A stretch of DNA of 42,712 nucleotides from Escherichia phage LotteLoewe_Bas71: the sequence record PQ850615.1. The stretch is one strand, 5' to 3'. The notes beneath the pieces are model-generated. The model was not told the origin of the DNA. It saw only the letters and a program-made list of their open reading frames with translations, and did no database searches. This document shows positions 5,112 through 40,833 of this stretch, piece by piece. The first letter of the stretch is position 1. The number at the start of each line of letters is the position of its first letter. A program made the position numbers and the translations under genes.

Positions 5112-5138
5112 TTTTCACCTCCTGTTTAAGTTAACTGA

Positions 5139-5233: not shown

Positions 5234-5442
5234 TTGACTTTTCACTAAAAATATGATAAGCTCCACCTGAGCTTGTGAAGTATGAACAAGCGACCGCGGC
5301 GCGGGCAGGTAACGGAGCGGGACGTAAGTCCTGAGTGTAGTTACGCTGACGCGTTCGGAAGGGCCATACTCTATTGCTTGTGTAAAAAGTAACAGGTTTA
5401 CTGAGATTACGCCGTTTCTATGTTTAAATGATAAGGACTAGC

Positions 5443-13749: not shown

Positions 13750-13778
13750 GTTACATGTGAATAGTACCCTATTATATT
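13750..13778 (+). promoter_or_regulatory. candidate rightward promoter overlapping the leftward one (divergent pair)
   Basis: GTTACA (13750..13755) - N17 - TATATT (13773..13778) on the plus strand within the same palindromic element; upstream of tail chaperone operon. Confidence 0.35.
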
Positions 13779-24111: not shown

Positions 24112-25532
24112 TTCTTACCTCGTCTCTTCATGTAATTAAGCAACTCTTCCTGTACCGATTTTTTCTCGTCCGTACGCGTGGCAACAACCTCGTCCAGCGT
24201 GTCTTTAGCGACGATATGATAGAGGAACACCGGGCGCTCGTGTCCCGCCTGTTTCTGGCGGACCGGGCCTATGCGCTCAACAACCTGTAAATAGTGCTCA
24301 AGGTTCCACCCTTGCGAAATAAACGCCAGATGATGTCCGCCGTCCTGTAAATTCAAACCATGACCAGCTGACGCAGGATGCACGCATAAGATCTCAATTT
24401 CACCACGGTTCCACGCTTCCATCTGCTTATTCCCCTTAGCGCCTTTGGCAAACGCCTGCGCCTGCGGGAAACGTTTCAGGATGCGCTCCAGTTCGTGCTT
24501 GAACTGATAGGCCACCAGTAACGGTGCCCCCTGTAACTCCTCAACAATGGACTCGAGCGCATCAAGTTTCGTGTCGTGCACTTTCTCCCATTCTTTGGTT
24601 GCTTCGCCGTCTTCGCCCGTCACATACACGGCACCGGAAGCAATCTGCAAGCACTTAGCCGTTTTAGCGGCAGCGTTGGCAGCCTGCACCTCCCCACTCT
24701 CCAGTTCCGCGATTAACTTTTTCTCCATATCGATGTACGCCTGACGCGCTTTCTTCGGCAGGTCGATTTCAACCGGCACGATAACAGGCGCTTCACAACC
24801 GAACCACTCAGCAGGGTCGATAGTCAGGCTGATGTCTTTCATCTTCTGATGAATCTCATTATCCGCACCCGGTCGTGCATGATACTCGCGGGCCATAGCC
24901 GATTTACCTTTCTGTACCGAGTTAAACCAGCGGTCGGTGAATGCTGTGTACGAAGAGCCGAGGCGCTCGCCAGCGTCGATAAACCAGTTCTGACCCCACA
25001 AGTCTTTGAGGCCGTTTGGTGACGGTGTGCCTGTCAGGTTGATGAAACGCTTAACCTTTCCGAACGCAACCTTGCTGAGCGCCTTTGCCCGCTTGCTACC
25101 ACCCGAACGGCTGCGGAACGATTTAAGCTTCGTGCTTTCATCGGCAACGATAACCGTAAAAGGCCAGTCGTCTTTGCCGTAGTAGTCAATTAGCCACTCG
25201 ATAACTTCGTAGTTAGTGCACACCACGTTAGCATCTGACTCCAGCGCTGCGATGCGGCGCTTCTCCGAACCAGTTGCATCTACGACACGCAGACAAGGGA
25301 ATTGCCATTTCTCTTGTTCAGCGGGCCACGTACCGGACGCAACACGTAACGGGGCAAGGATTAACACGCGGTCCTCTTCCGTAAGCTGCCCGTTGCGGAA
25401 CAGGCGGTTGAGCACCCACATAGTGGAGGAGGTTTTACCTCCCCCCATTCCGCACCAGATATTACAGCGCGGGTGTTGCAGCATGAACGAAGTCATGAGC
25501 TTCTGGTACTCACGCCTTTGAAACTTACTCAT
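24108..25532 (-). CDS. SNF2-family ATP-dependent helicase
   Basis: Walker A GMGGGKT, DExx box (IVADESTKLKS), C-terminal helicase domain. Confidence 0.7.
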   Translation of the reverse strand: MSKFQRREYQKLMTSFMLQHPRCNIWCGMGGGKTSSTMWVLNRLFRNGQLTEEDRVLILAPLRVASGTWPAEQEKWQFPCLRVVDATGSEKRRIAALESDANVVCTNYEVIEWLIDYYGKDDWPFTVIVADESTKLKSFRSRSGGSKRAKALSKVAFGKVKRFINLTGTPSPNGLKDLWGQNWFIDAGERLGSSYTAFTDRWFNSVQKGKSAMAREYHARPGADNEIHQKMKDISLTIDPAEWFGCEAPVIVPVEIDLPKKARQAYIDMEKKLIAELESGEVQAANAAAKTAKCLQIASGAVYVTGEDGEATKEWEKVHDTKLDALESIVEELQGAPLLVAYQFKHELERILKRFPQAQAFAKGAKGNKQMEAWNRGEIEILCVHPASAGHGLNLQDGGHHLAFISQGWNLEHYLQVVERIGPVRQKQAGHERPVFLYHIVAKDTLDEVVATRTDEKKSVQEELLNYMKRRGKK

Positions 25533-26322
25533 TTACTGCCCCCATGAACGCCTTTATAAATTCAGCGGCTACTTGCGGGACGATGGCATTGCCATAACCG
25601 CGCAATCGTCCCACTCTTGCGGATACCCCATGAGTTGCCTCGCAAAATCCGCCTGGTATGACTCTAGTTTCCTTATCTGCTCCATGGTTGGGTTTCCATG
25701 AATCCCATAAACATGAAGCCACATCTGGCGATAAAGAGTATCGTTCCTGAATTTTCCGTCCTTTCTGTAAAATGTCTTGCTGAGATCCCCGTAATCCTTC
25801 CATCCTCGCGCCGTTGGTGTCGCCCATCCTCGCGCCAAAGATGATTCTTTTCCTTTCCTGTGGAGAGCCGACGCTGCAAGCTGGCAATACTGACGCCCCG
25901 CAGGCGTAGCCTTTGTCTTCCAGGTTAAGGAATACAAAATCGAGCCAGTGCTTCCCAATTGCTGCTGCAACCTGCTCTCCAAACAGCAATTCAGGCTTGC
26001 ACTCTCTGATGAGCCTGAGAAATGCTGGGGCAAGGTGTCGATCGTCGTCAAATCCGAGAGACTTACCGGCAACGCTAAACGGCTGGCAAGGTGGTGATCC
26101 TGTCCAGAGTCGAGTGCTTTCTGGTATTCCTGCCAGCTGGAGTGCAAGGGGCCACCCTCCGATTCCGGCAAAGAAGTGACACTGTGTAAATCCTTCCAGG
26201 TCTGAAGGGGTGACTTCGGTGATTGATCGTTCATCGACATATCCGTAAGGAATTAGTTTATTGTTAATTAATTCACGCAGCCACGCGGCTGCGCCTTTAT
26301 CCCATTCGTTGTAATAGTTCAT
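25525..26322 (-). CDS. DNA (cytosine-5) methyltransferase
   Basis: C5-MTase motifs I (FFAGIGGW), IV (SPPCQPFS), VI-like (LFGEQV), VIII (QERKRIIFGAR). Confidence 0.6.
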   Translation of the reverse strand: MNYYNEWDKGAAAWLRELINNKLIPYGYVDERSITEVTPSDLEGFTQCHFFAGIGGWPLALQLAGIPESTRLWTGSPPCQPFSVAGKSLGFDDDRHLAPAFLRLIRECKPELLFGEQVAAAIGKHWLDFVFLNLEDKGYACGASVLPACSVGSPQERKRIIFGARMGDTNGARMEGLRGSQQDILQKGRKIQERYSLSPDVASCLWDSWKPNHGADKETRVIPGGFCEATHGVSARVGRLRGYGNAIVPQVAAEFIKAFMGAVNE

Positions 26323-26510
26323 TTCGCCACCAGAACTAACTCTTTACGCCCGAACGCCGTAACGTTACCGGTTACGTCTTCAATAACCAGTTTACCGTTC
26401 GACTCGACGAACACCGTATCAACGGCAACAGGACGACGGGTCTTAACGTTGAAAATCATGTCGCCGGGTACGATGTCACGTGCTGGTTTGCGGTCATATT
26501 CGTGTTTCAT
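26319..26510 (-). CDS. hypothetical 63-aa protein
   Basis: ORF with AAGGAA SD, immediately downstream of promoter 26545..26573. Confidence 0.4.
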   Translation of the reverse strand: MKHEYDRKPARDIVPGDMIFNVKTRRPVAVDTVFVESNGKLVIEDVTGNVTAFGRKELVLVAK

Positions 26511-26826
26511 TTCTAAATTCCTTATATTGTTGGGGTATGTGCTTACTATAATAGTCTGCTATTAGGGTGTCAATCTGTTTTATCGAACCAACGACAAAAA
26601 CATTTGCGCCACGTTTACGTATACGCTCGTGTTCCCGTAGCTGGTGCGGGTCTGGCTTAGTGTTTTCGTCTTTCTTCACCTCGACGAACCAGACGATGCC
26701 GCCGGGTAGAATTGCCAGCAGGTCAGGAGCGCCTGAACGTCCTTCGTAGGAAAGTTTACGAACGAGGCCACCAATGGCCTCGAATCGCTCTTTTGCGTAT
26801 TTCTGGATGCGGCCCTCTTTAGTCAT
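26494..26826 (-). CDS. VRR-NUC domain nuclease
   Basis: PD-(D/E)XK-like core (GAPDLLAIL ... VWFVEVKKDEN) typical of VRR-NUC. Confidence 0.55.
   Translation of the reverse strand: MTKEGRIQKYAKERFEAIGGLVRKLSYEGRSGAPDLLAILPGGIVWFVEVKKDENTKPDPHQLREHERIRKRGANVFVVGSIKQIDTLIADYYSKHIPQQYKEFRNETRI
26545..26573 (-). promoter_or_regulatory. leftward class B promoter (TTGACA-N17-TATAGT)
   Basis: Minus strand TTGACA (26568..26573) - N17 - TATAGT (26545..26550); lies inside the 3' end of the VRR-NUC ORF. Confidence 0.5.
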
Positions 26827-26975
26827 GACCGCAGCATCCAGGTAAGGAAAACCCAGCCTAGAATGGCAACACCGGCAAACTGAAAGAACAGGCCGTAACA
26901 GAACATAGCAGCTATTCCCGCACCGAGTAACAGTGCGAGCATGGTTACTATGGTCCTAAATACAAACTTTGTCAT
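26823..26975 (-). CDS. small hydrophobic membrane protein (50 aa)
   Basis: GAGGGG SD; single predicted TM segment; below ORF-track cutoff. Confidence 0.3.
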   Translation of the reverse strand: MTKFVFRTIVTMLALLLGAGIAAMFCYGLFFQFAGVAILGWVFLTWMLRS

Positions 26976-27057
26976 AATACACACCCCTCACGTTTCGTAT
27001 GCTCAATCCCGCAGCGCGGACAGATTCGGCAGTCTTCTTCGTATAACCAGTAAATTT

Positions 27058-27189
27058 TCATTCCAGCACCCACAAATAAATTGCTACTAGCATACCCAAT
27101 ATGGCAACCATCATGCCGTATTGTCCCTCGTGACAGTAGACACCGGCGGCAAATCCCGCCAGTACCGCGATAATCAGTTTACTTGGCAT
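27058..27189 (-). CDS. small hydrophobic membrane protein (43 aa)
   Basis: Two hydrophobic segments; start overlaps DNA polymerase 3' end. Confidence 0.3.
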   Translation of the reverse strand: MPSKLIIAVLAGFAAGVYCHEGQYGMMVAILGMLVAIYLWVLE

Positions 27190-29359
27190 AACGCTTCATC
27201 TCCGCACCTTCCGCTACAAGAGGGAACCCCTCCGCCCACTCCGGTAATTCGCACATCAACCGCTCAAGCTCTGCAACATTGTATTCTGGCGTATCTGGTG
27301 TTTCGCAGATAATTTCGTCGTGTACGTGAAGCACAATAGGATAGCCGTTTGCTTCAACGTTCAGCAGTGCATTGGCCAGCAAATCACGGCACAGCGCCTG
27401 AGTACAGTTTTCCACGAGTTTACCAGAGTAGGTGTACTGGAAGCCCCACTGACGGGTTAACTGGTTCTCCCCCTGGTACTTGATGCGTACGTTAGTAGAC
27501 ACTTTTCCATCTTCGTCTGTTTCTTTCGACACGCTTAACCCGACGCCCGGATAAGACATAACGCGACCCGACGGCAACGTCATGCGCAACCACCAGCCGG
27601 CGACTTTGTTGCCGTTGTTGTCTGTCTCTACGTTGCGCGAAAACTTAACCCCCCTAGGCCCCGCGGTGAACTCTTTACCTGGATTGCGGATAGCGGCCAT
27701 AGCTGCGTCTTCAATATCTCGCCAGAAAGCTACTGTTTCAGGGTGTGACTCTCGCCACATACGCTTGATAGCGTCACAGGTACGCCACACTTTCTTATCA
27801 AGAATATACGATGGTCGGTCATCCTTCTCCCCGGGTCGCGGCGGTCGCTTGGCTTCCTGAATACGTGCCCATTCATAGCCGCGTGCAGTAGCCGCCCAGA
27901 TGTGGTCCGGGAAAGTACCGTCCATTGTTTTTGACATATCAACAAGGTCAAGTCCGAGGTTCTTAGCAAACTGAACGAAAGCGCCAACACCACCAGCGTA
28001 GCCGAGGCCAAGCTCGCAGGCTTTACCAATCTGGCGCAAGTCTTTGCGTTCCTTCTTAATGTAATCCGGCTCCATGCCGAACATCTTACCCGCGGTTACA
28101 CAGTAAATGTCCAGCCCGGCGCGGAACGTATCTAGCGCGGTTTCTTCGCCTGCCAGCCACGCAAGCCCCCGACCTTCAACGTTAGAGTAATCGGCGACGA
28201 CAAACTTTTTTCCAGCTTCCGGGATAATGCAGCTACGCACCGTCGATGCCGTTAGCTTAGCGACATCGAAACGGCGATGCGCGCGGCCCTTAAGTAACGC
28301 TGAAATACCTTTATCCAGTTCATCATCGTGATAGTACCCGCGCGCGAGGTTCTGCGGCTGAAATCCTTTACCGGCAAATCGTAATGTACGCTTGGCTCCG
28401 CCGTACTGAATGCAACCACGACGGCGGTCGTCCGACGAGCGCCCTAACAGCAGCGGGTTATATTTCGTTGACGCTGTGGACGCGGCCCCGAGGCGCATTT
28501 CGATAATCGTGCGTGCGTCGTCCGGTAAATCATCATCCGCCAACAGGTCGTTAAGCGTAGACTTCTGCGCGTTGTGGATGCGGTGCGCTGGTGCAAGTTC
28601 ACGCAGAATCGGCAGGAAGTCTTTACCAGTAAGCGAGCCGCCGTATTTGCGCTGTGCTTCTTCCTGTAGCTGGGCCTTGTGTTTTTCCACGGCTTCAATC
28701 GCGGCTTCCGCCAGCGTCACATCAACCTTAAACCCACGGTCGTTAATCAACTGGTCCAGTTCCAGTACACGGTCTTCGAACTCGGAGTTACCCCAACGCG
28801 GCAGCTTATGGAAGACTTCACGCATCGCAGTGATGTCGCTCACGGCGTACCTGATGAACATCGCCCACTCGTCAGGGTGAGTTTCTGCGGTGTAGCGGCG
28901 GATTTTGTAGTTCTTCGGCGTCGGTTTAGAGAAACGCTTAATCAGAGCCTTGCCGCGTTTATCTTTCGCGTTGTCTGCAGACACGCCCAGCACTTCGCAC
29001 AGCGCATCAAGTGAACCCGGCAGCGCGTGACGAAACGCCCAAATCATCGTATCAATGGTGTTGCTTACGGGAATATCAAAGCCCCAGCAGTGTTTCATGA
29101 TGAGCCTGTCGAACATTGAGCCGTTGTGCCACACCATCTTAATACGACTGTTCGGCTTAACCAGGCGGCGCAGTGCGCGGTGCAAATCACCCGGCATGTC
29201 GCTGCCGTCGGTGCAATCCCATACCCGCACAGGCTCGTCGTCAAAAGCATATGTGCAGATAAGCACTTCGGTAGTCGGGTGTTCGGCGTAAGCGTAGGAG
29301 CCGACTTTCTTTAAATCGGCTTCGGAGAATGTTTCAAAGTCCAGGTATAAGTAGCTCAT
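27179..29359 (-). CDS. DNA polymerase, family A, with 3'-5' exonuclease domain
   Basis: Exo motif (YLYLDFETFS), pol motif A (DYSNVEGRGLAWLAGE), motif B (RQIGKACELGLGYAGG), motif C (LHVHDEI); start refined to ATG 29359 with AAGGA SD. Confidence 0.85.
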   Translation of the reverse strand: MSYLYLDFETFSEADLKKVGSYAYAEHPTTEVLICTYAFDDEPVRVWDCTDGSDMPGDLHRALRRLVKPNSRIKMVWHNGSMFDRLIMKHCWGFDIPVSNTIDTMIWAFRHALPGSLDALCEVLGVSADNAKDKRGKALIKRFSKPTPKNYKIRRYTAETHPDEWAMFIRYAVSDITAMREVFHKLPRWGNSEFEDRVLELDQLINDRGFKVDVTLAEAAIEAVEKHKAQLQEEAQRKYGGSLTGKDFLPILRELAPAHRIHNAQKSTLNDLLADDDLPDDARTIIEMRLGAASTASTKYNPLLLGRSSDDRRRGCIQYGGAKRTLRFAGKGFQPQNLARGYYHDDELDKGISALLKGRAHRRFDVAKLTASTVRSCIIPEAGKKFVVADYSNVEGRGLAWLAGEETALDTFRAGLDIYCVTAGKMFGMEPDYIKKERKDLRQIGKACELGLGYAGGVGAFVQFAKNLGLDLVDMSKTMDGTFPDHIWAATARGYEWARIQEAKRPPRPGEKDDRPSYILDKKVWRTCDAIKRMWRESHPETVAFWRDIEDAAMAAIRNPGKEFTAGPRGVKFSRNVETDNNGNKVAGWWLRMTLPSGRVMSYPGVGLSVSKETDEDGKVSTNVRIKYQGENQLTRQWGFQYTYSGKLVENCTQALCRDLLANALLNVEANGYPIVLHVHDEIICETPDTPEYNVAELERLMCELPEWAEGFPLVAEGAEMKRYAK

Positions 29360-29511
29360 TTCTTTTTCCTTAAATCCAGTGCCTTCGTTTCGCTGAGTCT
29401 TATTTTCATACAATCACGGCAAATCCACACATGCCTGTACCCGGCGCGGTACTCATCCGCGTACCACGGAAGCGGTTTCATATATCGGTATACGTGCTTA
29501 CAGAAAAACAT
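29356..29511 (-). CDS. hypothetical 51-aa Cys/His-containing protein
   Basis: Small ORF whose stop overlaps the polymerase ATG (ATGA); C-x3-H ... C-x2-C pattern. Confidence 0.3.
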   Translation of the reverse strand: MFFCKHVYRYMKPLPWYADEYRAGYRHVWICRDCMKIRLSETKALDLRKKK

Positions 29512-29526
29512 GATTTTCGACCCTTA

Positions 29527-29551
29527 GTAAAAAGGCCCAATGAAGGGCCTT
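29527..29551 (-). terminator. intrinsic terminator after SSB-like gene
   Basis: On the minus strand AAGGCCC-TTCATT-GGGCCTT followed by TTTTTAC. Confidence 0.5.
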
Positions 29552-29570
29552 AGTTAAATTGATTCAGATA

Positions 29571-30197
29571 TTAACGGCGGCGACGTTCGCGGCGCGGTGC
29601 TTCATCTTCTTCGTCGTCTTCCAGGTCATTGACGCTCGCAGCGACTTTAGAACCGCCGAACGCTTTGCCTTCGCCAACGTATTTAATCGCCAGCAGGTTA
29701 ACGCCGAGGACTTTGTATTTCTGGCTGAACCAGATTTCAACGCTTACGTTAGCTAAGCATCCGCTGTAAACCTGTTCACCTTCAATCTGTTCACCGTCTA
29801 CATTGAAGTCCTGTTCTACCTGAGTCTCACCTTTTTTAGAGGTTACAATCAGCGGCTGCTTCTGTGCCTTCGCTTTGAAGTAGAAGCCTTCCGGGAAGTC
29901 TTCAAACGGATTGTCGCGCTCGGCGATGTCCTTAATCGCGCATTTATCCATGTGCTTGCCTTCGCCGTAGTTTGACTTCATCCATTTCTCTGCGGCGGCT
30001 GCACCCAACGCTTCTTCAACCACAGCGTAAACGGTGTCGTAGAGCGCGTCGATTTGCGCGTGGTCGGACGGCAGGATAATAGTCGCGCTGTACTGACCTT
30101 TAGTGATTGAACCATCATCATTTTCACGGTCTTTTTCGCGTTCGAATACGTTAACCCAGGCAGTGTTTACTTTACGCAGATTTAATTTCAGTCCCAT
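29571..30197 (-). CDS. ssDNA-binding protein (T7 gp2.5-like)
   Basis: Acidic C-terminal tail (DLEDDEEDE), AFGGSK motif and overall pattern reminiscent of gp2.5-type SSB; own promoter and terminator. Confidence 0.45.
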   Translation of the reverse strand: MGLKLNLRKVNTAWVNVFEREKDRENDDGSITKGQYSATIILPSDHAQIDALYDTVYAVVEEALGAAAAEKWMKSNYGEGKHMDKCAIKDIAERDNPFEDFPEGFYFKAKAQKQPLIVTSKKGETQVEQDFNVDGEQIEGEQVYSGCLANVSVEIWFSQKYKVLGVNLLAIKYVGEGKAFGGSKVAASVNDLEDDEEDEAPRRERRRR

Positions 30198-30255
30198 TTG
30201 ATTTCTCGCTTTTCAGTTTCAGTTTACTCCGGGATCTGCCCGGCCAGTGATTAGA

Positions 30256-30284
30256 ACTATAATAGCTAACTATTCATGTGTCAA
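30256..30284 (-). promoter_or_regulatory. leftward class B promoter (TTGACA-N17-TATAGT) for SSB-like gene
   Basis: Minus strand TTGACA (30279..30284) - N17 - TATAGT (30256..30261); core AATAGCTAACTATTCA. Confidence 0.55.
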
Positions 30285-30503
30285 ATAAAATTTTGCAATA
30301 GGGATTATGTTCTCGAAATTAAGCATATTGGCCGGTTCGAACTCATCCTCTACAGGGTCGTATCGCATCATGGTACCGTTCAAGAACGTGAACGATTCCG
30401 AGTGTAGATACCCATCCCAGCGCCATACCATCAAAAAATCTTTATCAGTCGGCATTTCATTTACTTGAATCATTCTAAATCCTCCTCTGTAACTTGATTC
30501 CAC
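30270..30503 (-). CDS. hypothetical 77-aa protein
   Basis: ORF in the replication arm; 3' end overlaps promoter 30256..30284. Confidence 0.4.
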   Translation of the reverse strand: MESSYRGGFRMIQVNEMPTDKDFLMVWRWDGYLHSESFTFLNGTMMRYDPVEDEFEPANMLNFENIIPIAKFYLTHE

Positions 30504-31711
30504 TCAGGACGTTTGTCATCCGCCGTTGCGACGCATGGCGCACCGGGCTTACGGGTAATGAAGTCTTTCAGTTCTTCTTCCGGTACAATTTTAACCGCTT
30601 CGGTCGGTGTCATAAGAACTACCTTTTGCAGCATAGTACCGTACTTCTCGAATACTGCGTCGGTATCTTTCCACGCACGATTACCGGGGCGACCTTCAAC
30701 CAGTTTGTATCCTGGCACTTTCTTACCTGAATGCAAAGCAGCAGCCATCGCTTTCTCAACCTTGTCAATGTGCTGGCGCAACAAAGGCAACTTCTCATAT
30801 TCAGCTACGAGTTGCTCCGGCGTAAGTTCCAGCGCAAAGTCGTCCTCCAGTTCTTCGGCAAGTACAGAATTAACAGTCTTTGTACGCGCTGCGCACTGTT
30901 CAGAGAACCGACACCACTGACAACCGTCGACAGACGGCTTAAAGTCCGACGCTTTCAGGTTCTTCTTGCCTCGGAAATACGCATCAAGGGCTAACAGTGC
31001 GCGTTTCTGTGCGAACTTAGCGAACAGTTCCAGACCTTCAACCGAGATGTCCCACTCCGACGCGCCCCCGGCGTACGGCTGGAAGATTACCAGGCGCACT
31101 ACTGAGATGTTATAACGTCTCTTGAGTCGGCGGTAAACACCGAGAGCGTAGAGCATAAGCTGCTTGTTTTCTTTCGCTTCGACATGATGCCGTCCTGTTT
31201 TCAGGTCGCCGATAATGAGCATATGCTCGTCAGTGTTCGCCAGTTCCTGAACGGCAACGAGGTCGGCGGTTCCGAATGTCTCTACGCCTTCATATCCCGG
31301 ATGCAGAACCTCAGTAAGATTTACGCGCATCTCCAGCTTCGCGTAAGTCGCCACGTCGATAATCGCTTTGCAGTAATCGGTGTACTTTGTACACTGGTCA
31401 ATCATGTCCGCCGTAATCAGTACCGCGCCTTTCATCGGACTGATTAGCGCCTTAATCGGGCCTTTACCTTCGTCCAGTACGTACGCGCCTACTTCACGTG
31501 CTAGCGGCAACGCAGTGCCTTTGATGTACTGATTCAGGTGAATCTCAGATATCGTGTGCATAGCCGTGCCTAATACAGCGGCTTTGCCTGACGTGTTCGG
31601 GATGTCTTTTTCACATGCCAGCGACGCACTGCACGCCAACCATTTCTTAGCACCTGACGGTGACAGTAAGGCGTGTACATCGTTATTGCCCCCGCGTTCT
31701 TTCAAAATCAT
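30470..31711 (-). CDS. PD-(D/E)XK nuclease, Cas4/RecB-like exonuclease
   Basis: RecB nuclease motifs (GTADLVAV, IGDLKTG, EAKENKQLMLYA) and C-terminal Cys cluster (CQWCRFSEQC); start refined to ATG 31711 with GGGAGG SD. Confidence 0.6.
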   Translation of the reverse strand: MILKERGGNNDVHALLSPSGAKKWLACSASLACEKDIPNTSGKAAVLGTAMHTISEIHLNQYIKGTALPLAREVGAYVLDEGKGPIKALISPMKGAVLITADMIDQCTKYTDYCKAIIDVATYAKLEMRVNLTEVLHPGYEGVETFGTADLVAVQELANTDEHMLIIGDLKTGRHHVEAKENKQLMLYALGVYRRLKRRYNISVVRLVIFQPYAGGASEWDISVEGLELFAKFAQKRALLALDAYFRGKKNLKASDFKPSVDGCQWCRFSEQCAARTKTVNSVLAEELEDDFALELTPEQLVAEYEKLPLLRQHIDKVEKAMAAALHSGKKVPGYKLVEGRPGNRAWKDTDAVFEKYGTMLQKVVLMTPTEAVKIVPEEELKDFITRKPGAPCVATADDKRPEWNQVTEEDLE

Positions 31712-31980
31712 ACCCTGACCTCCCACTGGTCAATTAAATGCCGAGTTTTGTGCTGGCAATGCATCGCCCAGCTATACATAGACTCGAAGACATAAAAGTC
31801 ACTTTTAACGAAAGTCGTACGCTTAATCTGCGACAGGTGACGGCCTATATCTTTAGGCCGTGGTACTTTTCCTAAGTACGCCATCTCTTCCATCTGGTGC
31901 GCGCCGGACGGCGCACGCAACAGCCACAACGCCTCTGTGTTATCCCGTCGGTCAATACCTCGGTAGAGTTGGTAAATCAT
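31708..31980 (-). CDS. hypothetical 90-aa protein
   Basis: ORF ATGA-coupled to the nuclease gene. Confidence 0.4.
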   Translation of the reverse strand: MIYQLYRGIDRRDNTEALWLLRAPSGAHQMEEMAYLGKVPRPKDIGRHLSQIKRTTFVKSDFYVFESMYSWAMHCQHKTRHLIDQWEVRV

Positions 31981-32023
31981 ATTACGACCCTCTGTTAAAG
32001 CGGCCCGGAGGCCGCCAGATAAA

Positions 32024-32524
32024 TTATTCTTCTTCGAAATACTTGTTCTTAATCGCCGTCAGGCGTTTCAGGTATTCAGCTAGGTCTTCGTCTTTAATCG
32101 CGGCAATCTTCATTTTCTTACCGGTGAACTCCTCCAGCAGTTCATCGGAATCGTCGCACGCAGCATCGCTAGGACCTTCGTTAATTGCATCGTCGATAGC
32201 CTGAATCTGGTCACGAAGAGACTGGTAATCGACCTCTTCTTTCTCTTCTTCTGGTTCTGGAGTCGGCTCCTCTACTTTAGCTTTACGCGGCTTGCGTTTC
32301 GGCTTCTCTTCTTCTGCTGGTTTAGCGTCAACGATGTCTTCACCTTCAACAGGGATTTCTTTTGTTGCTTCTTTTTCGCACTCAGCTACCGCTTCTTTGG
32401 TATACACTACCGTCTCTACTTCTAACGGCGCTGCAACTTGTGCTGACTGCTTCGCACTGTTCGCAGCAATCAGTTCATGTGCAACTACGAAACGTTCCAG
32501 TAATTTTAAGAATTGTTCTAACAT
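32024..32524 (-). CDS. highly acidic early protein (candidate DNA mimic / anti-restriction)
   Basis: 166 aa, very D/E-rich with one basic patch (KPKRKPRKAK); first gene after tandem leftward promoters; conserved leader CGAGAGGAGAGA. Confidence 0.5.
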   Translation of the reverse strand: MLEQFLKLLERFVVAHELIAANSAKQSAQVAAPLEVETVVYTKEAVAECEKEATKEIPVEGEDIVDAKPAEEEKPKRKPRKAKVEEPTPEPEEEKEEVDYQSLRDQIQAIDDAINEGPSDAACDDSDELLEEFTGKKMKIAAIKDEDLAEYLKRLTAIKNKYFEEE

Positions 32525-32555
32525 TTGTTTCTCTCCTCTCGTTTGGTATGGGCTA

Positions 32556-32584
32556 ACTATAATAGCGAACTATTCACATGTCAA
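32556..32584 (-). promoter_or_regulatory. leftward class B promoter (TTGACA-N17-TATAGT) for acidic early gene
   Basis: Minus strand TTGACA (32579..32584) - N17 - TATAGT (32556..32561); core AATAGCGAACTATTCA. Confidence 0.6.
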
Positions 32585-32599
32585 TGGGCTTTTCTAAAA

Positions 32600-32628
32600 T
32601 AATTAATATGGTACTATTCACATATCAA
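32600..32628 (-). promoter_or_regulatory. second, weaker tandem leftward promoter / operator half-site
   Basis: Minus strand TTGATA (32623..32628) - N17 - TAATTA; contains half-site GTACTATTCACAT. Confidence 0.35.
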
Positions 32629-32648
32629 CTGACTAAGGAGTAATTGAC

Positions 32649-32864
32649 ATGCAACCATCTGAACTAGGCATCCGTGTAGAACAACGCCGCAAAGAACTCG
32701 GCATCTCCCAGCGCCGTTTGGCGGCCCTGACCGGCGTTTCCCAGGGCGCGATTAACCAACTGGCACTTGGAGTAACTCAGGACGTCCGCCCGGCAACGCT
32801 GTTCAAACTGGCGGAAGTTCTGGAAGTAGACGCCAAGTGGCTGGCGTTAGGTGAAGGGGCTTAA
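32649..32864 (+). CDS. XRE-family helix-turn-helix transcriptional regulator (Cro/CI-like)
   Basis: HTH signature (ISQRRLAALTGVSQGAINQLALG); AAGGAG SD; own terminator; oriented against the surrounding leftward genes. Confidence 0.7.
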   Translation: MQPSELGIRVEQRRKELGISQRRLAALTGVSQGAINQLALGVTQDVRPATLFKLAEVLEVDAKWLALGEGA

Positions 32865-32879
32865 AGCCCCTTTCTTTTT
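32856..32879 (+). terminator. intrinsic terminator after XRE HTH gene
   Basis: GGGGC-TTAAA-GCCCC hairpin followed by TTTCTTTTT; stop codon lies within the hairpin. Confidence 0.6.
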
Positions 32880-32881
32880 AC

Positions 32882-35104
32882 CTATTCCAAATCCTCCTCT
32901 GTCACCACCAGCATCTCATTTGGTTCGTATAGTGTCTTCGGCCTTAATCTATCCCCTATTCTTTCGGGTATACGATATGTTCTCGGTACTACTTCGCCGT
33001 TAGCATCGCAACCAAGCATTAGTTCTCCATCTTTCAACATTTTATCAAGATGGGTGTTAGTCACAGAGAAGTCACCGGAACGAGCCACTATCTGCTGCTG
33101 AGTAAAACCGCGACCTGTGTCATCTGACTGTTGCAGGTCTTCCAGTGCCGAAAGTATTGACTCCTTCCTTACTTCATCCCTGCCGCGTTTAACTTCTTCC
33201 TTTACTTTTTGCTTACCTTCTTTCGTCAACCCTTCTTCCCGCTCTTTCTCCTCGTCAGTTTTGAACGGCTCGAAACCCCACGGCATCAACACAAGCGCCT
33301 TGTGTGGTTCAGGAAGGTCCAGGTTTACGATTGTGCCGTATTCTTCTGTGCCCCCCAGGAACTCAACCGCACGGTACTCTTTCGGCGGAGGAGCTTCGCG
33401 GAACTGCACAGACTCCAGCACCATGCCAACCGTTTTCTGTTGAGGACCGTGCTTAAATTTCGAGTGGTATACGTTTATTTGACGGTCGGTTGCACGTTCG
33501 ATTGTCAGTTCCACGTCAACACCCGCATACAGCGCCCCACTGCCGCGTGCTTTCTTTCCACCCTTCGGCGTATGGTGGACAACGCCTACTGCGGCTTTAG
33601 TTGCATCGCGTACTTCTTTCAGAATGGCGATAACTTTACCCATGCCGATTGCTGTTGATGAACTGTTCTCGTCGAACTTATCAATCGTCAGTGCCAGGGT
33701 CTGGTTAAGGGTGTCGAACGCAACCATGCCAATTGGCTCGTCGCCAGCAGTTTCGCGCATTAACTTAATCAGGCTTTTAAGTTTGCCGACTTCGCCCATA
33801 TCGATGACGTGTACATAATCTTTACCTTCCCCGCCATATTTAGCCGCTAGTGCATCAATACGGGTGCGTGTAGCTGCGCCACCCTCACCATCAATATAGA
33901 AATGGTGGCAACGCTGGGTATCCGCCCCCGCAAACCTGTACCCGGCGGCGCTGAGGTACATCATCCCCAGCGTATAGAACGATTTGTACGTGCCAGATTC
34001 CCCGACGATATCCCAGATACAATCCGACGGCATGTACCCCTCAACGACGAAATCAGCCTTTACCGGCTCCGGTAACTCGTCCTCCTCTGAGTCCTCGTCG
34101 TCTTCCAGGTCGTCGAGGCTGCAAGTTACTGGGTCCTCGTTCTCTGTGCGGTGTAGTTCTTCAATCTCTTCTTCCGGTAAATCAGGCAGAGCCGCACGAA
34201 TGCTGTTAATGCTGATAGGTTGCTTATCTATGTTAAGCTCGTCGGGTAGGCCACACATACGCAGGGCCAAATGCTGCCTACGGTTAAGCTCGGTGCAAGC
34301 GCCGTTGTTTGTATGCTGGCAGACAAAGCGCACTTCTTTACCGTCGAGCATTATGCTGGTGGAGCCCTTGCCTGTATGCAGATGTTCGTTAGGGCATGGC
34401 ACTTCGTACCCGCGCCCGGAAGATAAAGCGTCAAGGCCAAGCTCGGCTTCGCAGAAGTGTGCTATATCCGCGTTAAGCCCATGCTCATCAGCGGCAAGTG
34501 TTTTAGCCTCACGCTTACGCAACCCCATCTCTTCGGCTTTCTTGATGTACCGCTCAGCACGGATAACACGCCCTTCTGTAACCGTTATCTTCGACTCTTT
34601 ATGCGGCAGGTAGATAAGGCGGTTGCCGTCTTCTGTGCAGTGGTCGCGCAACGCTTCGTCTATTTCTAACTCTGCACAAATAGCACGTTGCACCATCCAC
34701 GCGTCGTTAGAGTTAAACGGCGTGCGAGCTGGAACCAGAACGCGGAAAGCGTAATCTCCGTTTTTACACACATGCTGATGCGATGCCGTTGTATGCAGAA
34801 TATTGAAGAACGGTGCGTTCTTGAATTTGCGGGTAAGGTCGCGGTACTGAGTACGGTTGAGATGGTCGAAATCGAACTTAACCACACTGTCTTCCAGGAT
34901 AGCGTTTTTACGGCGACCACCAACAGGCGCAATAGCTTTCTGTTTAATCTTGGCAGCGTCGTACTCTTCCTTAGTCCATGACGGGTCCACGGATAAACGC
35001 TTCGATGTATCGCAGACATACTCCACAAACTGCTCGAGCGGCATCTCACGCGCTACAGGGTTTTTATCGAATGTGTTACGCAGCGTTGCAAAAACAATAT
35101 TCAT
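32882..35104 (-). CDS. DNA primase-helicase (primase N-terminal region + RecA/DnaB-like ATPase)
   Basis: 740 aa; Walker A-like GESGTYKS; C-terminal helicase motifs (VVHHTPKGG ... GSGALYAGVD); N-terminal Cys/His cluster (CPNEHLHTG ... FVCQH). Confidence 0.65.
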   Translation of the reverse strand: MNIVFATLRNTFDKNPVAREMPLEQFVEYVCDTSKRLSVDPSWTKEEYDAAKIKQKAIAPVGGRRKNAILEDSVVKFDFDHLNRTQYRDLTRKFKNAPFFNILHTTASHQHVCKNGDYAFRVLVPARTPFNSNDAWMVQRAICAELEIDEALRDHCTEDGNRLIYLPHKESKITVTEGRVIRAERYIKKAEEMGLRKREAKTLAADEHGLNADIAHFCEAELGLDALSSGRGYEVPCPNEHLHTGKGSTSIMLDGKEVRFVCQHTNNGACTELNRRQHLALRMCGLPDELNIDKQPISINSIRAALPDLPEEEIEELHRTENEDPVTCSLDDLEDDEDSEEDELPEPVKADFVVEGYMPSDCIWDIVGESGTYKSFYTLGMMYLSAAGYRFAGADTQRCHHFYIDGEGGAATRTRIDALAAKYGGEGKDYVHVIDMGEVGKLKSLIKLMRETAGDEPIGMVAFDTLNQTLALTIDKFDENSSSTAIGMGKVIAILKEVRDATKAAVGVVHHTPKGGKKARGSGALYAGVDVELTIERATDRQINVYHSKFKHGPQQKTVGMVLESVQFREAPPPKEYRAVEFLGGTEEYGTIVNLDLPEPHKALVLMPWGFEPFKTDEEKEREEGLTKEGKQKVKEEVKRGRDEVRKESILSALEDLQQSDDTGRGFTQQQIVARSGDFSVTNTHLDKMLKDGELMLGCDANGEVVPRTYRIPERIGDRLRPKTLYEPNEMLVVTEEDLE

Positions 35105-35229
35105 TTCTTTTTCTCCGCACGTTCTAAGGCTTCCTGCATACGGCGCATTGCGCGGTTCATCTTTACCGGTGCGAAGAAGTCAGCGCCGTGTTTCTGGCGG
35201 CGTAGCTGTGGAACTATTAACTTTGTCAT
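35101..35229 (-). CDS. hypothetical 42-aa basic protein
   Basis: Small ORF whose stop overlaps the primase-helicase ATG (ATGA). Confidence 0.3.
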   Translation of the reverse strand: MTKLIVPQLRRQKHGADFFAPVKMNRAMRRMQEALERAEKKK

Positions 35230-35269
35230 TGTATAATCCTTATGCTTACTTTGATGATTTGTACTTTAG

Positions 35270-35300
35270 CCCCGACGTTCTGGCGTTGGGGTTTCTTTTT
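35270..35300 (+). terminator. plus-strand intrinsic terminator inside the leftward arm (orphan)
   Basis: CCCCGACG-TTCTGG-CGTTGGGG stem followed by TTTCTTTTT; no plus-strand gene upstream. Confidence 0.4.
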
Positions 35301-35589
35301 ACCGTTTAGCCAACCCTTCCAGCAAATTTTTATACTCTTCAAAATATTCCTCGACCAAATCATCGCCGAAATAGAAGTCGATATACTCGAGATTATCTCT
35401 TACGTTAAGCGATGCCGACATGGTGCTTAGTTGGCGTAAGCTAATTAGCTTCATTTCTGTTTCTACGCAGAAAGGCCGGTAGGTATCAAGATGGCAAGAG
35501 ATATTGAAGCATAAAGCGAACTCTCCGGCCACGGAGTGAACCATATACACTTCGTTTTCTGCTTTATTGTGGAAAATTACGCCTTTCAT
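35299..35589 (-). CDS. hypothetical 96-aa protein
   Basis: ORF ATGA-coupled to the upstream AlpA-like gene. Confidence 0.4.
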   Translation of the reverse strand: MKGVIFHNKAENEVYMVHSVAGEFALCFNISCHLDTYRPFCVETEMKLISLRQLSTMSASLNVRDNLEYIDFYFGDDLVEEYFEEYKNLLEGLAKR

Positions 35590-35768
35590 TTCACGTTCTC
35601 CTTAATCCATGCTTCGACTTTATTACGGTCAAATGTTCCCGGTAAACGGCGGCCCATAACCTTAATACAGCAGTCAGGGAATTTGCCGCTGCGCAACCAG
35701 TTATTAATGGTCTGACGTGTCACCCCGATACGCTCGGCTACCTCATTCTGTGTCATGTAATGTTGCAT
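35586..35768 (-). CDS. AlpA/Xis-like HTH DNA-binding protein
   Basis: Start refined to ATG 35768 (AGGGGA SD); HTH region MTQNEVAERIGVTRQTINNWLRSGKFP typical of the AlpA family; first gene of the leftward arm. Confidence 0.6.
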   Translation of the reverse strand: MQHYMTQNEVAERIGVTRQTINNWLRSGKFPDCCIKVMGRRLPGTFDRNKVEAWIKENVK

Positions 35769-35799
35769 TTTTATATCCCCTGTTTGTTTAGTGAAACCG

Positions 35800-35828
35800 A
35801 GTATAGGATAGCGGGAATGTAAAAGCAA
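35800..35828 (-). promoter_or_regulatory. leftward promoter of replication arm (TTGCTT-N17-TATACT)
   Basis: Minus strand -35 TTGCTT (35823..35828), 17-nt spacer, -10 TATACT (35800..35805); about 30 nt upstream of AlpA-like ATG. Confidence 0.5.
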
Positions 35829-35865
35829 CCAATCCCTGCAATATTTAATCTTTACAAAAAAGTTA

Positions 35866-35895
35866 TTGAAAGTTCTTGACACATGTTTGTATAAT
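35866..35895 (+). promoter_or_regulatory. rightward promoter in central control region (TTGAAA-N18-TATAAT)
   Basis: -35 TTGAAA 35866..35871, 18-nt spacer, consensus -10 TATAAT 35890..35895; divergent from promoter 35800..35828. Confidence 0.5.
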
Positions 35896-36094
35896 GGTTT
35901 TGGGACTTGTATATATTACGGAGTTGACGAACCCTCCCCGAGGGATTCGTCAACCCCTCCCAGACAGCTGAGATGCTTGCCTTGTGGTTTAAGGATAAGT
36001 GTATCTAAATCTCATTTAAAGAAGTAACCCGCTGAAATATCTACTGTTTCTTAATGTGCCGTAGATTCGCAACCGTAAAAATGTAACGATTATT

Positions 36095-36122
36095 GGGCAG
36101 GCTTAGGGCCTGCCCTTTAGTT
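36095..36122 (+). terminator. terminator-like hairpin ending the control-region transcript
   Basis: GGGCAGGC-TTAGG-GCCTGCCC followed by TTTAGTT. Confidence 0.4.
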
Positions 36123-36187
36123 ACCAAGTAATAAGAATAAAGGCACAACAGTTTCGAAAGAATCACAACGGCAACGTAACTATTCTC

Positions 36188-36216
36188 TTGCACACCCCAA
36201 CATAATAGGATACTAT
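36188..36216 (+). promoter_or_regulatory. early promoter, class A (TTGCAC-N17-TACTAT) with palindromic core
   Basis: -35 TTGCAC 36188..36193, 17-nt spacer, -10 TACTAT 36211..36216; core CATAATAGGATACTATTCA. Confidence 0.55.
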
Positions 36217-36241
36217 TCACTTATCGAAACGAGACAGAGGA

Positions 36242-36442
36242 GTGAGGGTTATGTTTAAGAAGGGTCAGTTGGTTAAAACTAAACGCGGAGGGCAATATGT
36301 ATTAGTGTTGCAGGACGAGAGCGAGTATGACGAGGATAATCTGGTTGACGTATGGGGTCTGGTAAGAAAGAAAACTGGGTTCGCCTCCCGCGATAATTTA
36401 GAACTCATCGGCAACAATTTTAAATTCAAAGGGGCGAAGTGA
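36242..36442 (+). CDS. hypothetical early protein (66 aa)
   Basis: First ORF after promoter 36188..36216 with conserved AACGAGA...GGAG leader. Confidence 0.45.
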   Translation: MRVMFKKGQLVKTKRGGQYVLVLQDESEYDEDNLVDVWGLVRKKTGFASRDNLELIGNNFKFKGAK

Positions 36443-36657
36443 TGGAAGAATTAATTTGTATTGAATCCCGCCAGGATGTGCAGGATTGGTTTGTGAAAGG
36501 TAACAAATATTCGTCAGGAGTATATTACAACGGCCGTCGATACGTTTTAGATGAAGACGGTGATGAATGGGATTTAGAGGACACTGTGGGCGAGACTTTA
36601 ACCGTTAGTTTTCTTCAATGTTGTTTCCGCATCATTCACAACGGCATCGAATCATGA
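36439..36657 (+). CDS. hypothetical early protein (72 aa)
   Basis: ATGA-coupled ORF. Confidence 0.4.
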   Translation: MMEELICIESRQDVQDWFVKGNKYSSGVYYNGRRYVLDEDGDEWDLEDTVGETLTVSFLQCCFRIIHNGIES

Positions 36658-36684
36658 GGCTCGTGCCGACGACTCTGAGGGAGG

Positions 36685-36885
36685 TTGCCGTTAATGAGAA
36701 TTCGTATAACTGATGTTGATTATGTGGACCCGCGCGATGGTGACGATTTGTCGCTTAGTTACTGGGGAGTTTCGGTAGGTGATGAGTTTGAGGTTTCCCT
36801 TGCTGGTTCCGATATGTTCATTATCGAATGTGACGCCGGATATGTGGTTGTGCACTCCTGTGAGTGTGAGGTTCTGGAGGACTAA
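36685..36885 (+). CDS. hypothetical early protein (66 aa)
   Basis: ORF with GAGGGAGG SD. Confidence 0.4.
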   Translation: MPLMRIRITDVDYVDPRDGDDLSLSYWGVSVGDEFEVSLAGSDMFIIECDAGYVVVHSCECEVLED

Positions 36886-36888
36886 GTT

Positions 36889-37032
36889 ATGAGAGAAGCA
36901 TTCGAACGGTGGGCCGTCGTCGAGGGTCTGCCGGTTAACAAGGGTTCAAAGAAAGAGTACCTGAACGTTAAGACGCGTCTTGCGTGGCGGGCGTGGAAAG
37001 CTGGTGCGCAAGCTGTGATGAATAAGGGGTGA
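36889..37032 (+). CDS. hypothetical early protein (47 aa)
   Basis: Short ORF tightly packed between neighbours; below ORF-track cutoff. Confidence 0.3.
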   Translation: MREAFERWAVVEGLPVNKGSKKEYLNVKTRLAWRAWKAGAQAVMNKG

Positions 37033-37035
37033 TTT

Positions 37036-37224
37036 ATGGGTAAGTGGATTAAGTGTAGTGAGCGGATGCCGGGTGACTTTGAAGATGTCCTGGTTTCGGA
37101 TGGTAGGTCTGTAGAAGTTATGTACCTCAGATTCGGCCTCTGGTACGTAACATCCCCGGATTCTGCTATTTGTGGGGATGAGGTTACACACTGGATGCCG
37201 CTACCAGAGCCGCCGGAAGTGTGA
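37036..37224 (+). CDS. hypothetical early protein (62 aa)
   Basis: ORF with AAGGGG SD; followed by terminator 37266..37296. Confidence 0.4.
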   Translation: MGKWIKCSERMPGDFEDVLVSDGRSVEVMYLRFGLWYVTSPDSAICGDEVTHWMPLPEPPEV

Positions 37225-37265
37225 TGTTATATTGTAACAATAGTTTGGGATTTTACTGAGTGACT

Positions 37266-37296
37266 TACGCTGCTACACAGCAGCGTATCATTTTTC
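37266..37296 (+). terminator. intrinsic terminator after first early operon
   Basis: TACGCTGCT-ACAC-AGCAGCGTA followed by TCATTTTTCTC. Confidence 0.55.
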
Positions 37297-37380
37297 TCAT
37301 TTTTGTTCTATTTCACCAAACGCAACAATCGAAGCGGCTATTGCAGGAGATGCAACAATACAAACACCAATAAAATTTAC

Positions 37381-37409
37381 TTGCACACTAATATAGAATA
37401 GGCTACTAT
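37381..37409 (+). promoter_or_regulatory. early promoter, class A (TTGCAC-N17-TACTAT)
   Basis: Same architecture and core (TAGAATAGGCTACTATTCA) as 36188; follows terminator 37266..37296. Confidence 0.55.
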
Positions 37410-37440
37410 TCATTTACACAAACGAGAGGAGAGACGGAAG

Positions 37441-37590
37441 ATGGTTACTTTGATGATTATGGAATTCGAAAACAGCGCCGCAACTTATCGCGAGATGACT
37501 ATGGCGCAGGCGTACCGCCTGGCCTCGAACGGCAACTTCTACAAGGCGCAAATCATCAATGAGTTCGGGGTAATTGACTATGAATTTTAG
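37441..37590 (+). CDS. hypothetical early protein (49 aa)
   Basis: First ORF after promoter 37381..37409; 22-bp leader CGAGAGGAGAGACGGAAGATGG. Confidence 0.4.
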   Translation: MVTLMIMEFENSAATYREMTMAQAYRLASNGNFYKAQIINEFGVIDYEF

Positions 37591-37852
37591 CAGCTACACC
37601 GTGACCGTTGATTTTGAGGGGCTGGAGTTGCCCCTCCCAAACAACTATCGGTATATAACTCGCGATAGTAATGGGTTTATTCAGGGGTGGCGGAACAAAC
37701 CGACAGACACTGAGTTCGGGATGTCGGGTGGGGAAGAGTTGCCAATCACGTTCGGACATCAGAGCAGCAATGAAGAGCTTAAAACGGTGATTCGTAAGTA
37801 TCGCCGACGCGGCAACACGGGGCTTATCGCAATAACAGGCGCTGTTGAATAG
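37580..37852 (+). CDS. hypothetical early protein (90 aa)
   Basis: ORF overlapping the upstream gene; ATG 37580 (alternative TTG 37574). Confidence 0.4.
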   Translation: MNFSSYTVTVDFEGLELPLPNNYRYITRDSNGFIQGWRNKPTDTEFGMSGGEELPITFGHQSSNEELKTVIRKYRRRGNTGLIAITGAVE

Positions 37853-37871
37853 GCGAGAGGAGAGACGGAAG

Positions 37872-38009
37872 ATGGGCGGGTACGGTAGCTGGACTTTAGG
37901 CGAACTGGTAGATGCTTACGAAATAATGGGCAGCACTTCGGTGTGCAACGGAGACACTAAATCGCTTCTAGTCGGGGCGGATGAGAAAAGGGGTGAAGCT
38001 GATGAGTAG
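37872..38009 (+). CDS. hypothetical early protein (45 aa)
   Basis: Preceded by an exact second copy of the 22-bp leader/start element (37854..37875). Confidence 0.35.
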   Translation: MGGYGSWTLGELVDAYEIMGSTSVCNGDTKSLLVGADEKRGEADE

Positions 38010-40782: not shown

Positions 40783-40804
40783 ATCTATTTTCTGCAATGA
40801 CTAG

Positions 40805-40833
40805 TTGACTATTACCTACGACCCTATTATATT
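40805..40833 (+). promoter_or_regulatory. rightward promoter (TTGACT-N17-TATATT)
   Basis: Canonical sigma70 spacing; sits right after terminator 40754..40782; spacer carries CCCTATTATAT, related to the shared core. Confidence 0.55.

Follow-up and report, generated by a model that had tools for sequence, protein, structure and literature searches.

What does a lone regulator of the XRE type do in a phage that carries no integrase? This question is raised by Escherichia phage LotteLoewe_Bas71 (sequence record PQ850615.1), whose sequence of 42,712 bp was analyzed over its whole length and is referred to here as the window. The gene in question, here called XRE (32649..32864, + strand), encodes a helix-turn-helix (HTH) protein of 71 amino acids and lies beside two copies of a palindromic element. 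An earlier note on this DNA had taken it for a timing repressor of the lytic cycle or a remnant of a temperate ancestor, rather than for a lysogeny repressor. On balance, we favor the reading that XRE is a small 434-Cro-type repressor, which would serve as a master repressor of the lytic cycle acting on nearly every promoter, and not as a lysogeny switch.

The protein is a member of the XRE/HTH_3 family and belongs, by sequence, to the 434 group. Its gene starts with an ATG that is preceded, at a distance of 8 nt, by the ribosome-binding site AAGGAG (32635..32640, +). Residues 11-65 match the Pfam domain HTH_3 (E 3.9e-13; 49.7 bits against a curated cut-off of 23), which bears out the Cro/CI-like label given earlier, and a phmmer search of the PDB with the single sequence returned 434 Cro (8.5e-6) and the 434 repressor domain (also ~1e-5). 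When a profile built from 12 family members was searched against the PDB, the best matches among solved structures were again the 434 repressor (1e-17) and 434 Cro (2e-17), followed by P22 C2 (1e-10) and lambda CI (1e-7). An AF2 model made from the single sequence (pLDDT 81) has the XRE fold, with helices at residues 5-17, 21-28, 32-39, and 48-68 and low confidence for the last 10 C-terminal residues. The top Foldseek matches of this model, with TM 0.6-0.7, were HipB, C-proteins, 434 repressor/Cro, P22 C2, and SinR. Like the window protein, 434 Cro is 71 amino acids long; both share the HTH_3 fold family with the 434 repressor domain, and structure alignments of the 434 proteins with XRE gave 36-42% identity.

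XRE proteins serve several functions, each with its own genomic context. A CI repressor would carry a C-terminal oligomerization or S24 autocleavage domain; here the 71 residues make up the HTH domain alone. The context of prophage maintenance was not found either, as the genome is complete, no ORF of at least 110 aa has an integrase domain, and 5,426 E. coli genomes contain no chromosomal copies, so that the earlier judgment that this is no usual lysogeny repressor stands. As for a lambdoid Cro, there is no cI in the genome, the divergent neighbor being a gene for an acidic 166-aa protein instead, and two local sites take the place of a tripartite operator. In addition, the window gene is monocistronic and has its own terminator; it does not head an early operon, a position that its homologs in Cornellvirus and Serratia phage Tsm2 do hold. 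XRE-type antitoxins (HipB/HigA/MqsA) pair with toxins, but the unit from promoter to terminator contains one open reading frame (ORF), with no co-directional neighbor. Controller (C) proteins of restriction-modification systems, of which C.AhdI and C.BclI were moderate matches in the profile search and the structure comparison, are likewise not indicated: an endonuclease was not detected, and the only methyltransferase gene lies at a distance of 6 kb. This gene (25525..26322, -) encodes a C-5 cytosine DNA methyltransferase without an endonuclease partner, is absent from Jerseyvirus and Cornellvirus, and probably has an anti-restriction function.

The 5 kb around the XRE gene are 97.7% identical to Escherichia phage VerenaMeyer_Bas76 and match 427 phage records, nearly all of them from two genera of the subfamily Guernseyvirinae, Kagunavirus and Jerseyvirus. 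Like the circular record of Bas76, the window begins with the terminase gene, and it is collinear with that record through the final base; judging from this collinearity, it is a complete Kagunavirus genome with no unsequenced flanks in which an integrase, as the earlier note had allowed, could still turn up. Nucleotide identity to Bas76 is 91-98% in most remaining blocks and 84% at its lowest, outside the C-terminal part of the tailspike. That part (22274..23761) has no nucleotide match to Bas76, from which we conclude that the receptor-binding module was swapped. Domain scans of all window ORFs of at least 110 aa found no integrase, recombinase, or resolvase, in agreement with what had been noted before, and none is annotated in Bas76.

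Homologs of XRE were detected by tblastn in 536 phage records, with coverage of at least 80% in 533 of them. The gene occupies the syntenic position in 500+ Guernseyvirinae records, and all Guernseyvirinae homologs are syntenic; XRE is a core gene of these lytic phages. Purifying selection on it is strong: in comparisons with 33 Kagunavirus relatives, dN/dS ranged from 0.02 to 0.21 (about 0.08), and the 34 sequences, 33 of them distinct at the nucleotide level, encode 15 distinct proteins. These numbers decide the remnant half of the earlier proposal. Beyond the subfamily, the homologs closest to XRE are CI-type repressors from temperate elements, as would be expected of a non-functional relic of a temperate ancestor. 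However, the low dN/dS and the intact copies in 533 of 536 records exclude a decaying remnant, and ribosome-binding site, promoter, and terminator are conserved as well, leaving a relic extremely unlikely. The other half, a lytic repressor, fits the placement of the candidate sites over core promoter elements, described below.

Judging from the annotation of the collinear Bas76 genome, XRE is the sole + strand gene between ~24.1 and 36.2 kb, as the earlier note had it for the leftward replication arm. The strong terminator ascribed to the gene was found as well: an intrinsic terminator (32853..32879, +) with a stem at 32853..32873 (-14.2 kcal/mol), followed by CTTTTT up to position 32879. The stop codon of XRE sits in its loop, and a terminator is annotated at the same place in phage Snoke. 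Downstream, XRE converges with the gene for a primase-helicase (AAA_25; 32882..35104, -), and the terminator serves the XRE side alone. Read on the - strand, the hairpin is not followed by a T-run, so that leftward primase-helicase transcripts should not terminate at this point. Cornellvirus (VSiA, L003 34354..37005), phage SE1 (L004), and Tsm2 (L095 6799..9567) have the primase-helicase gene in the orientation opposite to that in Kagunavirus and Jerseyvirus; in these three, XRE heads an operon in which the primase-helicase comes next on the same strand.

The 25-nt element upstream of XRE is present in two copies (32560-32584 and 32604-32628) that are 84% identical and lie 44 bp apart. Both had been read as strong leftward promoters, which holds for the first copy. 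There, the leftward promoter P_L (32556..32584, -), TTGACA-17-TATAGT, matches the sigma-70 consensus at 11/12 positions and faces the gene for the acidic protein (32024..32524, -; pI 4.5; PHROG 3127; found in all three genera), the first gene after P_L, and the replication operon. Its spacer contains O1, a perfect palindrome AATAG-CGAA-CTATT (32561..32574). For comparison, 80 IMG/VR loci with the XRE protein family were fetched. Across 38 Kagunavirus loci, the arms of O1 are unchanged, while its four central bases take at least 6 forms. At the ribosome-binding site of XRE, the sequence CTAAGGAGTAA is kept in nearly all of 48 related loci, with two single-base variants.

The second copy is a weak match as a leftward promoter (TTGATA-18-AATTAT, 9/12; 32599..32628, -), and no alignment yields a good -10. 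Read on the + strand, it gives TGGTACTAT, an extended -10 aimed at the HTH gene, and we propose this sequence (32609..32617, +) as the XRE promoter, with a predicted start near 32624. The bases TG and TACTAT are kept in all 38 Kagunavirus loci, and the base between them varies (G/A/C). The region as a whole is nearly invariant: AATATGGTACTATT occurs in 36 of the 38 loci, and the two exceptions differ solely between TG and TACTAT. Jerseyvirus has TTGCGT-17-TACTAT at the corresponding position. The proposed promoter is overlain by O2 (32605..32618), an imperfect palindrome AATAT-GGTA-CTATT whose one-arm mismatch is identical in 38/38 loci. Rather than a second strong leftward promoter, copy 2 is thus more likely to be mainly the regulator's own rightward promoter, carrying what appears to be a deliberately imperfect site. 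Two further candidates at this locus were rejected. A second dyad, ATTCACATGTCAAT, overlaps the -35 of copy 1, but its CACA block varies among the 38 relatives in sequence and by one base in length. A rightward promoter TTCACA-16-TAAAAT loses its TAAAAT in one relative (L041), and the bases between the dyad and the -35 are variable.

The element is no local tandem pair but recurs in at least 8 other promoter regions. The window contains 7 perfect and 5 one-mismatch copies of the core AATAG-N4-CTATT, against 1.06 expected, and none of 100 shuffles reached 12 copies with at most 1 mismatch. Read in one orientation, all good sites have the extended form T[A/G]AATAG-N4-CTATT[C/T]A. They fall into three classes by their position in the promoter. 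The spacer class comprises three leftward replication-arm promoters, all TTGACA-17-TATAGT, whose spacer is filled by the dyad, which also touches the -10. Besides P_L, these are the promoter of the operon for single-stranded DNA-binding protein (SSB) and DNA polymerase (operator 30261..30274, promoter 30256..30284, -) and a further leftward promoter (operator 26550..26563, promoter 26545..26573, -). These are 3 of the genome's only four 11/12 sigma-70 matches, with the site in identical register, and in ST20, Ent2, and Tsm2 all such best matches carry the palindrome in the same register. The fourth match in the window (TTGAAA-18-TATAAT; 35866..35895, +) has no palindrome and points rightward within a small leftward ORF. 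Bas76 shares it, but the 11/12 matches of ST20 and Ent2 do not include it; either an unregulated immediate-early promoter or chance could account for it.

In the -10 class (5138, 13760, 36204, 37397, and copy 2 at 32605), the dyad lies over the -10 of a promoter on the other strand, TTGCAC-17-TACTAT. From their sequences, these sites, in divergent intergenic regions, can be read as bidirectional promoter cassettes. The operator at 13760..13773 lies between GTTACA-17-TATATT, directed rightward to the tail genes, and TTGCAC-17-TACTAT, directed leftward; the divergent operator at 5138..5151 overlaps a leftward TTGCAC-17-TACTAT facing 4908..5111. Those at 36204..36217 and 37397..37410 cover the -10 of rightward TTGCAC-17-TACTAT promoters, upstream of a small-gene operon from ~36242 and of the gene at 37441, respectively; at 36204, a weak leftward match also faces the HTH_17/primase operon. 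A block GGGGTGTGCAAG, considered as a downstream element, turned out to be the reverse complement of the TTGCAC-17-TACTAT -35. The leaders at 32531..32546, 36224..36240, and 37418..37433 share the block AAACGAGA(G/C)(A)GAGGAG, ribosome-binding site included, which suggests that whole promoter-leader cassettes may have been duplicated around the genome.

In the third class, the center and one arm of the dyad make up a TTGACT -35. It comprises the one-mismatch sites AATAG-TTGA-CTTTT (5229..5242), upstream of the lysis and head genes and also found in ST20, and ACTAG-TTGA-CTATT (40800..40813), which overlaps the -35 of TTGACT-17-TATATT (40805..40833, +) and is kept in Ent2 and ST20.

The same motif has been reported from Kagunavirus fBC-Eco01, where PHIRE found seven copies of tgAATAGTa-ccTATTat-T, ascribed to promoters of a phage RNA polymerase (PMC9825357). 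While its sequence is that of the window palindrome, the dyad lies here inside promoters of the sigma-70 type, and Pfam and PHROGs scans of the window ORFs found no RNA polymerase, nor is one annotated in Bas76. The paper does not link the motif to XRE (PMC9825357).

Which protein, then, reads the palindrome? Two HTH proteins are encoded in the window: XRE and an excisionase/AlpA-like HTH_17 protein (35586..35768, -). Kagunavirus and Jerseyvirus have the dyad, whereas neither Cornellvirus VSiA nor phage SE1 does. XRE was found in all three groups compared (48%, 43%, and 41% identity, Jerseyvirus being the one at 48%), whereas HTH_17 occurs in only Kagunavirus and Jerseyvirus among them, with 82% identity. 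This distribution at first pointed to HTH_17, which was rejected, however, since two phages lack it and keep the sites. The complete genome of ST20 has HTH_17 nowhere and contains 6 perfect and 3 near palindromes; Tsm2, also without HTH_17, has 2 perfect and 2 near palindromes at syntenic promoters. In a gene-by-gene comparison, XRE was the only protein with a DNA-binding signature in every dyad-bearing genome. As an observation on this region, some Kagunaviruses, namely ST20 (L085 6954..7539), two IMG/VR contigs (L024 12559..13144), and GZMU_E2010, have an unrelated gene pair upstream of the primase-helicase, encoding a 47-aa CxxC...CxxC protein and a 149-aa protein, in place of HTH_17 and a 96-aa ORF (together 35299..35768, -).

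A second line of evidence comes from more distant relatives. Five IMG/VR loci, from uncultivated temperate elements, encode homologs that are 36-43% identical to XRE over the DNA-binding domain. Three of these (L057, L071, and L072) are CI-type proteins with HTH_3 and Peptidase_S24 domains, and two (L061 and L073) are shorter HTH_3 proteins with no further domain. In all five, helix 3 starts with SQG or TQG and has a Q five residues later, as in the window protein. Their loci contain A[AT]TAG-N4-CTA[AT]T dyads, the operator form of the window, only close to the repressor gene, as a cluster directly upstream of it and, in 4/5, a second cluster directly downstream; 0.2-0.6 per locus are expected by chance. 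Such OR-like and OL-like clusters are arranged as in a lambdoid immunity region. No such dyads were found at the loci of homologs with other recognition helices. The classical immunity region with its flanking clusters sets these loci apart from the window, as does the S24 autocleavage domain of the three CI-type proteins, since the window protein is a bare DNA-binding domain.

Given that XRE is the only recognizable DNA-binding protein common to all palindrome-bearing genomes, and that its SQG-helix homologs have the same type of operator in their immunity regions, XRE probably binds AATAG-N4-CTATT. Several observations weigh against this pairing. The Jerseyvirus protein is just 48% identical and has the recognition helix SQSLITH, yet its genomes carry the same palindrome as Kagunavirus, where the helix reads SQGAINQ or, at a single locus whose sites are unchanged, SQSAINQ. 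The Cornellvirus helix, TQSAISH, resembles that of Jerseyvirus, but its genomes have no palindrome and carry ATTAGYNNAGTAT instead. Tsm2 has a third helix, SQGMLNH, and no good palindrome beside its own XRE gene. As the helices of Kagunavirus, Jerseyvirus, and Tsm2 differ while the dyad is the same, residue-to-base rules cannot be read off. Finally, a small protein that escaped recognition could be the binder.

These points also lend support to an alternative in which another factor, either a small phage protein or a host protein, reads the palindrome, while XRE has a different operator or a local role confined to the intergenic region beside it: the helix differs between two genera with an identical palindrome, Cornellvirus retains XRE without the palindrome, and Tsm2 lacks a good site next to the gene. 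A candidate for such a factor is a 63-aa protein (26319..26510, -; PHROG 4879), 94-95% identical in the two palindrome genera that were tested, Kagunavirus and Jerseyvirus, and not detected in Cornellvirus. HTH_17 aside, it is the clearest real gene with this two-genus pattern, which is shared by two ORFs of ~30-60 aa; it is, however, without a DNA-binding signature, and no further protein with such a signature matches the distribution of the palindrome. HTH_17 is excluded by ST20 and Tsm2. A host factor, in turn, was rejected because Jerseyvirus and Cornellvirus both infect Salmonella while Jerseyvirus alone has the palindrome; to our knowledge, no E. coli regulator has a site that fits it. 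Taken with the sites of the homologous CI-type repressors, this makes another factor rather unlikely, and XRE remains our preferred candidate.

The element ATTAGYNNAGTAT of Cornellvirus-type genomes is a conserved, non-dyad spacer element, followed by TAT, at homologous promoters. It was recognized by inspecting syntenic promoters, and occurs in VSiA (L003) at 34247, 34309, 27324, and 37940, as well as in L004, L052, and L053, including both divergent promoters that adjoin the Cornellvirus XRE gene. A PHIRE-like self-comparison of VSiA (20-mers, up to 4 mismatches) returned terminators only, and CGCTA-N4-TAGCG dyads in Cornellvirus were dismissed as irrelevant, as all lie within genes.

The comparison with known systems is instructive in both directions. 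The 434 proteins bind 14-bp dyads, and their operators have the form ACAA-N6-TTGT. The window site is likewise 14 bp long, with conserved outer bases and a free center, and in both systems, the sites overlap core promoters and a weaker site lies in the region of the regulator's own promoter. The half-site differs, however, being AATAG rather than ACAA, and the window phage has no partner cI, no OR1-3/OL arrangement, and no lysogeny module. Instead, the sites of this lytic phage are spread across 9-12 promoter regions, and the Kagunavirus gene is monocistronic with its own terminator, unlike 434 cro, which comes first in an early operon. Scattered sites are known from P1 C1 and from mycobacteriophage L5 gp71 (“stoperators”), lysogeny repressors of temperate phages that recognize asymmetric sites. 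The likeness lies in a small repressor with sites at or near promoters throughout the genome; the window differs in being a lytic phage with a dyad site.

Based on these data, we propose the following model. XRE would be transcribed rightward from its own promoter (TGnTACTAT, 32609..32617), with transcription ending at its own terminator. A dimer would bind the 14-bp palindrome AATAG-N4-CTATT, filling the perfect sites first, with the imperfect O2 the last to be occupied. All sites overlap a -35, a spacer, or a -10, so that binding is expected to lower transcription. Repression would thus reach the promoters of the replication genes, that of the rightward small-gene operon, and the divergent cassettes before it came to the promoter of XRE itself; the -35 sites would extend it to two rightward promoter-like sequences, upstream of the lysis and head genes (5229) and of the small genes that follow the endolysin (40800). 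The weakened O2 would provide negative autoregulation, making XRE a Cro-like global brake without lysogeny, whose proposed action on early promoters resembles that of the 434 and lambda Cro proteins. Such a brake may serve to throttle transcription while template numbers increase, to time the lytic program, or to provide immunity to related phages.

Some information on timing is available from a time-course RNA sequencing study of Kagunavirus K1B4, which reported four early genes, one of them annotated “Helix-turn-helix domain” (008), and middle genes including “specific DNA binding” (004) and “AAA domain” (005) (PMC12645636). The gene order in K1B4 is XRE, primase-helicase (AAA_25), 42-aa ORF, 96-aa ORF, HTH_17, which fits the numbering 004 to 008. 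Tentatively, and from gene order alone, XRE would thus be a middle gene and HTH_17 an early gene. This raises a difficulty for a master repressor, as repression of late promoters by a mid-infection protein is hard to reconcile with a productive cycle. One might speculate that differences in affinity, or titration by replicating genomes, ease this difficulty.

Immunity might also be the main role of the protein, with a cell that is infected or carries phage DNA repressing incoming related genomes. Nearly all promoters carry sites, so that XRE acting in trans should silence an injected genome, and its relatives are immunity repressors. A lytic infection would gain little from this, however, unless its latent period were long. 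We regard immunity as the main role as quite unlikely, and note that it is compatible with the repressor model preferred here.

More far-reaching would be a silent, non-integrated carrier or plasmid-like state, that is, a cryptic temperate-like lifestyle without an integrase, for which the set of operators would permit a global shut-off. One record among the 72,556 plasmids of PLSDB is suggestive: CP088689.1 (L092), an entire Kagunavirus genome, was deposited as the circular “plasmid” pC16EC0033-2 (44,086 bp) of a clinical E. coli isolate from blood. It could reflect a carrier culture or state, pseudolysogeny, or contamination. Neither its annotation nor Pfam scans of the window revealed genes for partition, protelomerase, or plasmid replication, and XRE lacks the oligomerization and cleavage domain of CI-type repressors. 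A search of the 5,426 complete E. coli genomes in RefSeq, with their plasmids, gave no match to the 12-kb module at 26000..38000. A scan of GTDB genomes gave a Jerseyvirus-like scaffold in a Taishania assembly as its sole Guernseyvirinae-like match. This 19-kb scaffold (NZ_JACVEL010000022.1, L086), in the assembly of the flavobacterium Taishania pollutisoli, encodes XRE (48% identity), HTH_17 (82%), and SSB (76%), has the palindromes, and is probably a contamination. A search of the literature on pseudolysogeny turned up nothing relevant, and neither did a preprint on ApeA. Published descriptions call the phage group lytic (PMC11990801, PMC7203180), and lytic behavior has been reported for its phages (PMC7203180, PMC9787291, PMC11990801). 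A complete Cro-type global circuit conferring a reversible, silent non-integrated or carrier state, or immunity, with pC16EC0033-2 as an example, therefore seems very unlikely to us, and a carrier state as the actual lifestyle of these phages slightly more so.

Databases and papers already contain the gene and the motif, each on its own. The literature searched, however, offers no description of the connection between XRE and the motif, of the corrected promoter anatomy, or of the genome-wide regulon. Genome papers routinely report “no repressor” (PMC5217580, PMC9787291, PMC12919940), contrary to database records, which name the XRE gene a repressor. This matters in practice, as Kagunavirus and Jerseyvirus are among the phages most often isolated as candidates for therapy and food biocontrol, several are models in the BASEL collection, and Guernseyvirinae, which are in wide use for therapy and biocontrol, are treated as strictly virulent. 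For safety screens, a match to an XRE “repressor” in these genomes does not signal lysogeny. If the proposed role is correct, the published reading of the repeated motif as a promoter of a phage RNA polymerase would be corrected, and phage engineering would gain a compact repressor/operator pair along with a family of bidirectional promoter cassettes. It would also provide a testable model of how transcription is organized in a small lytic siphovirus that uses the RNA polymerase of its host.

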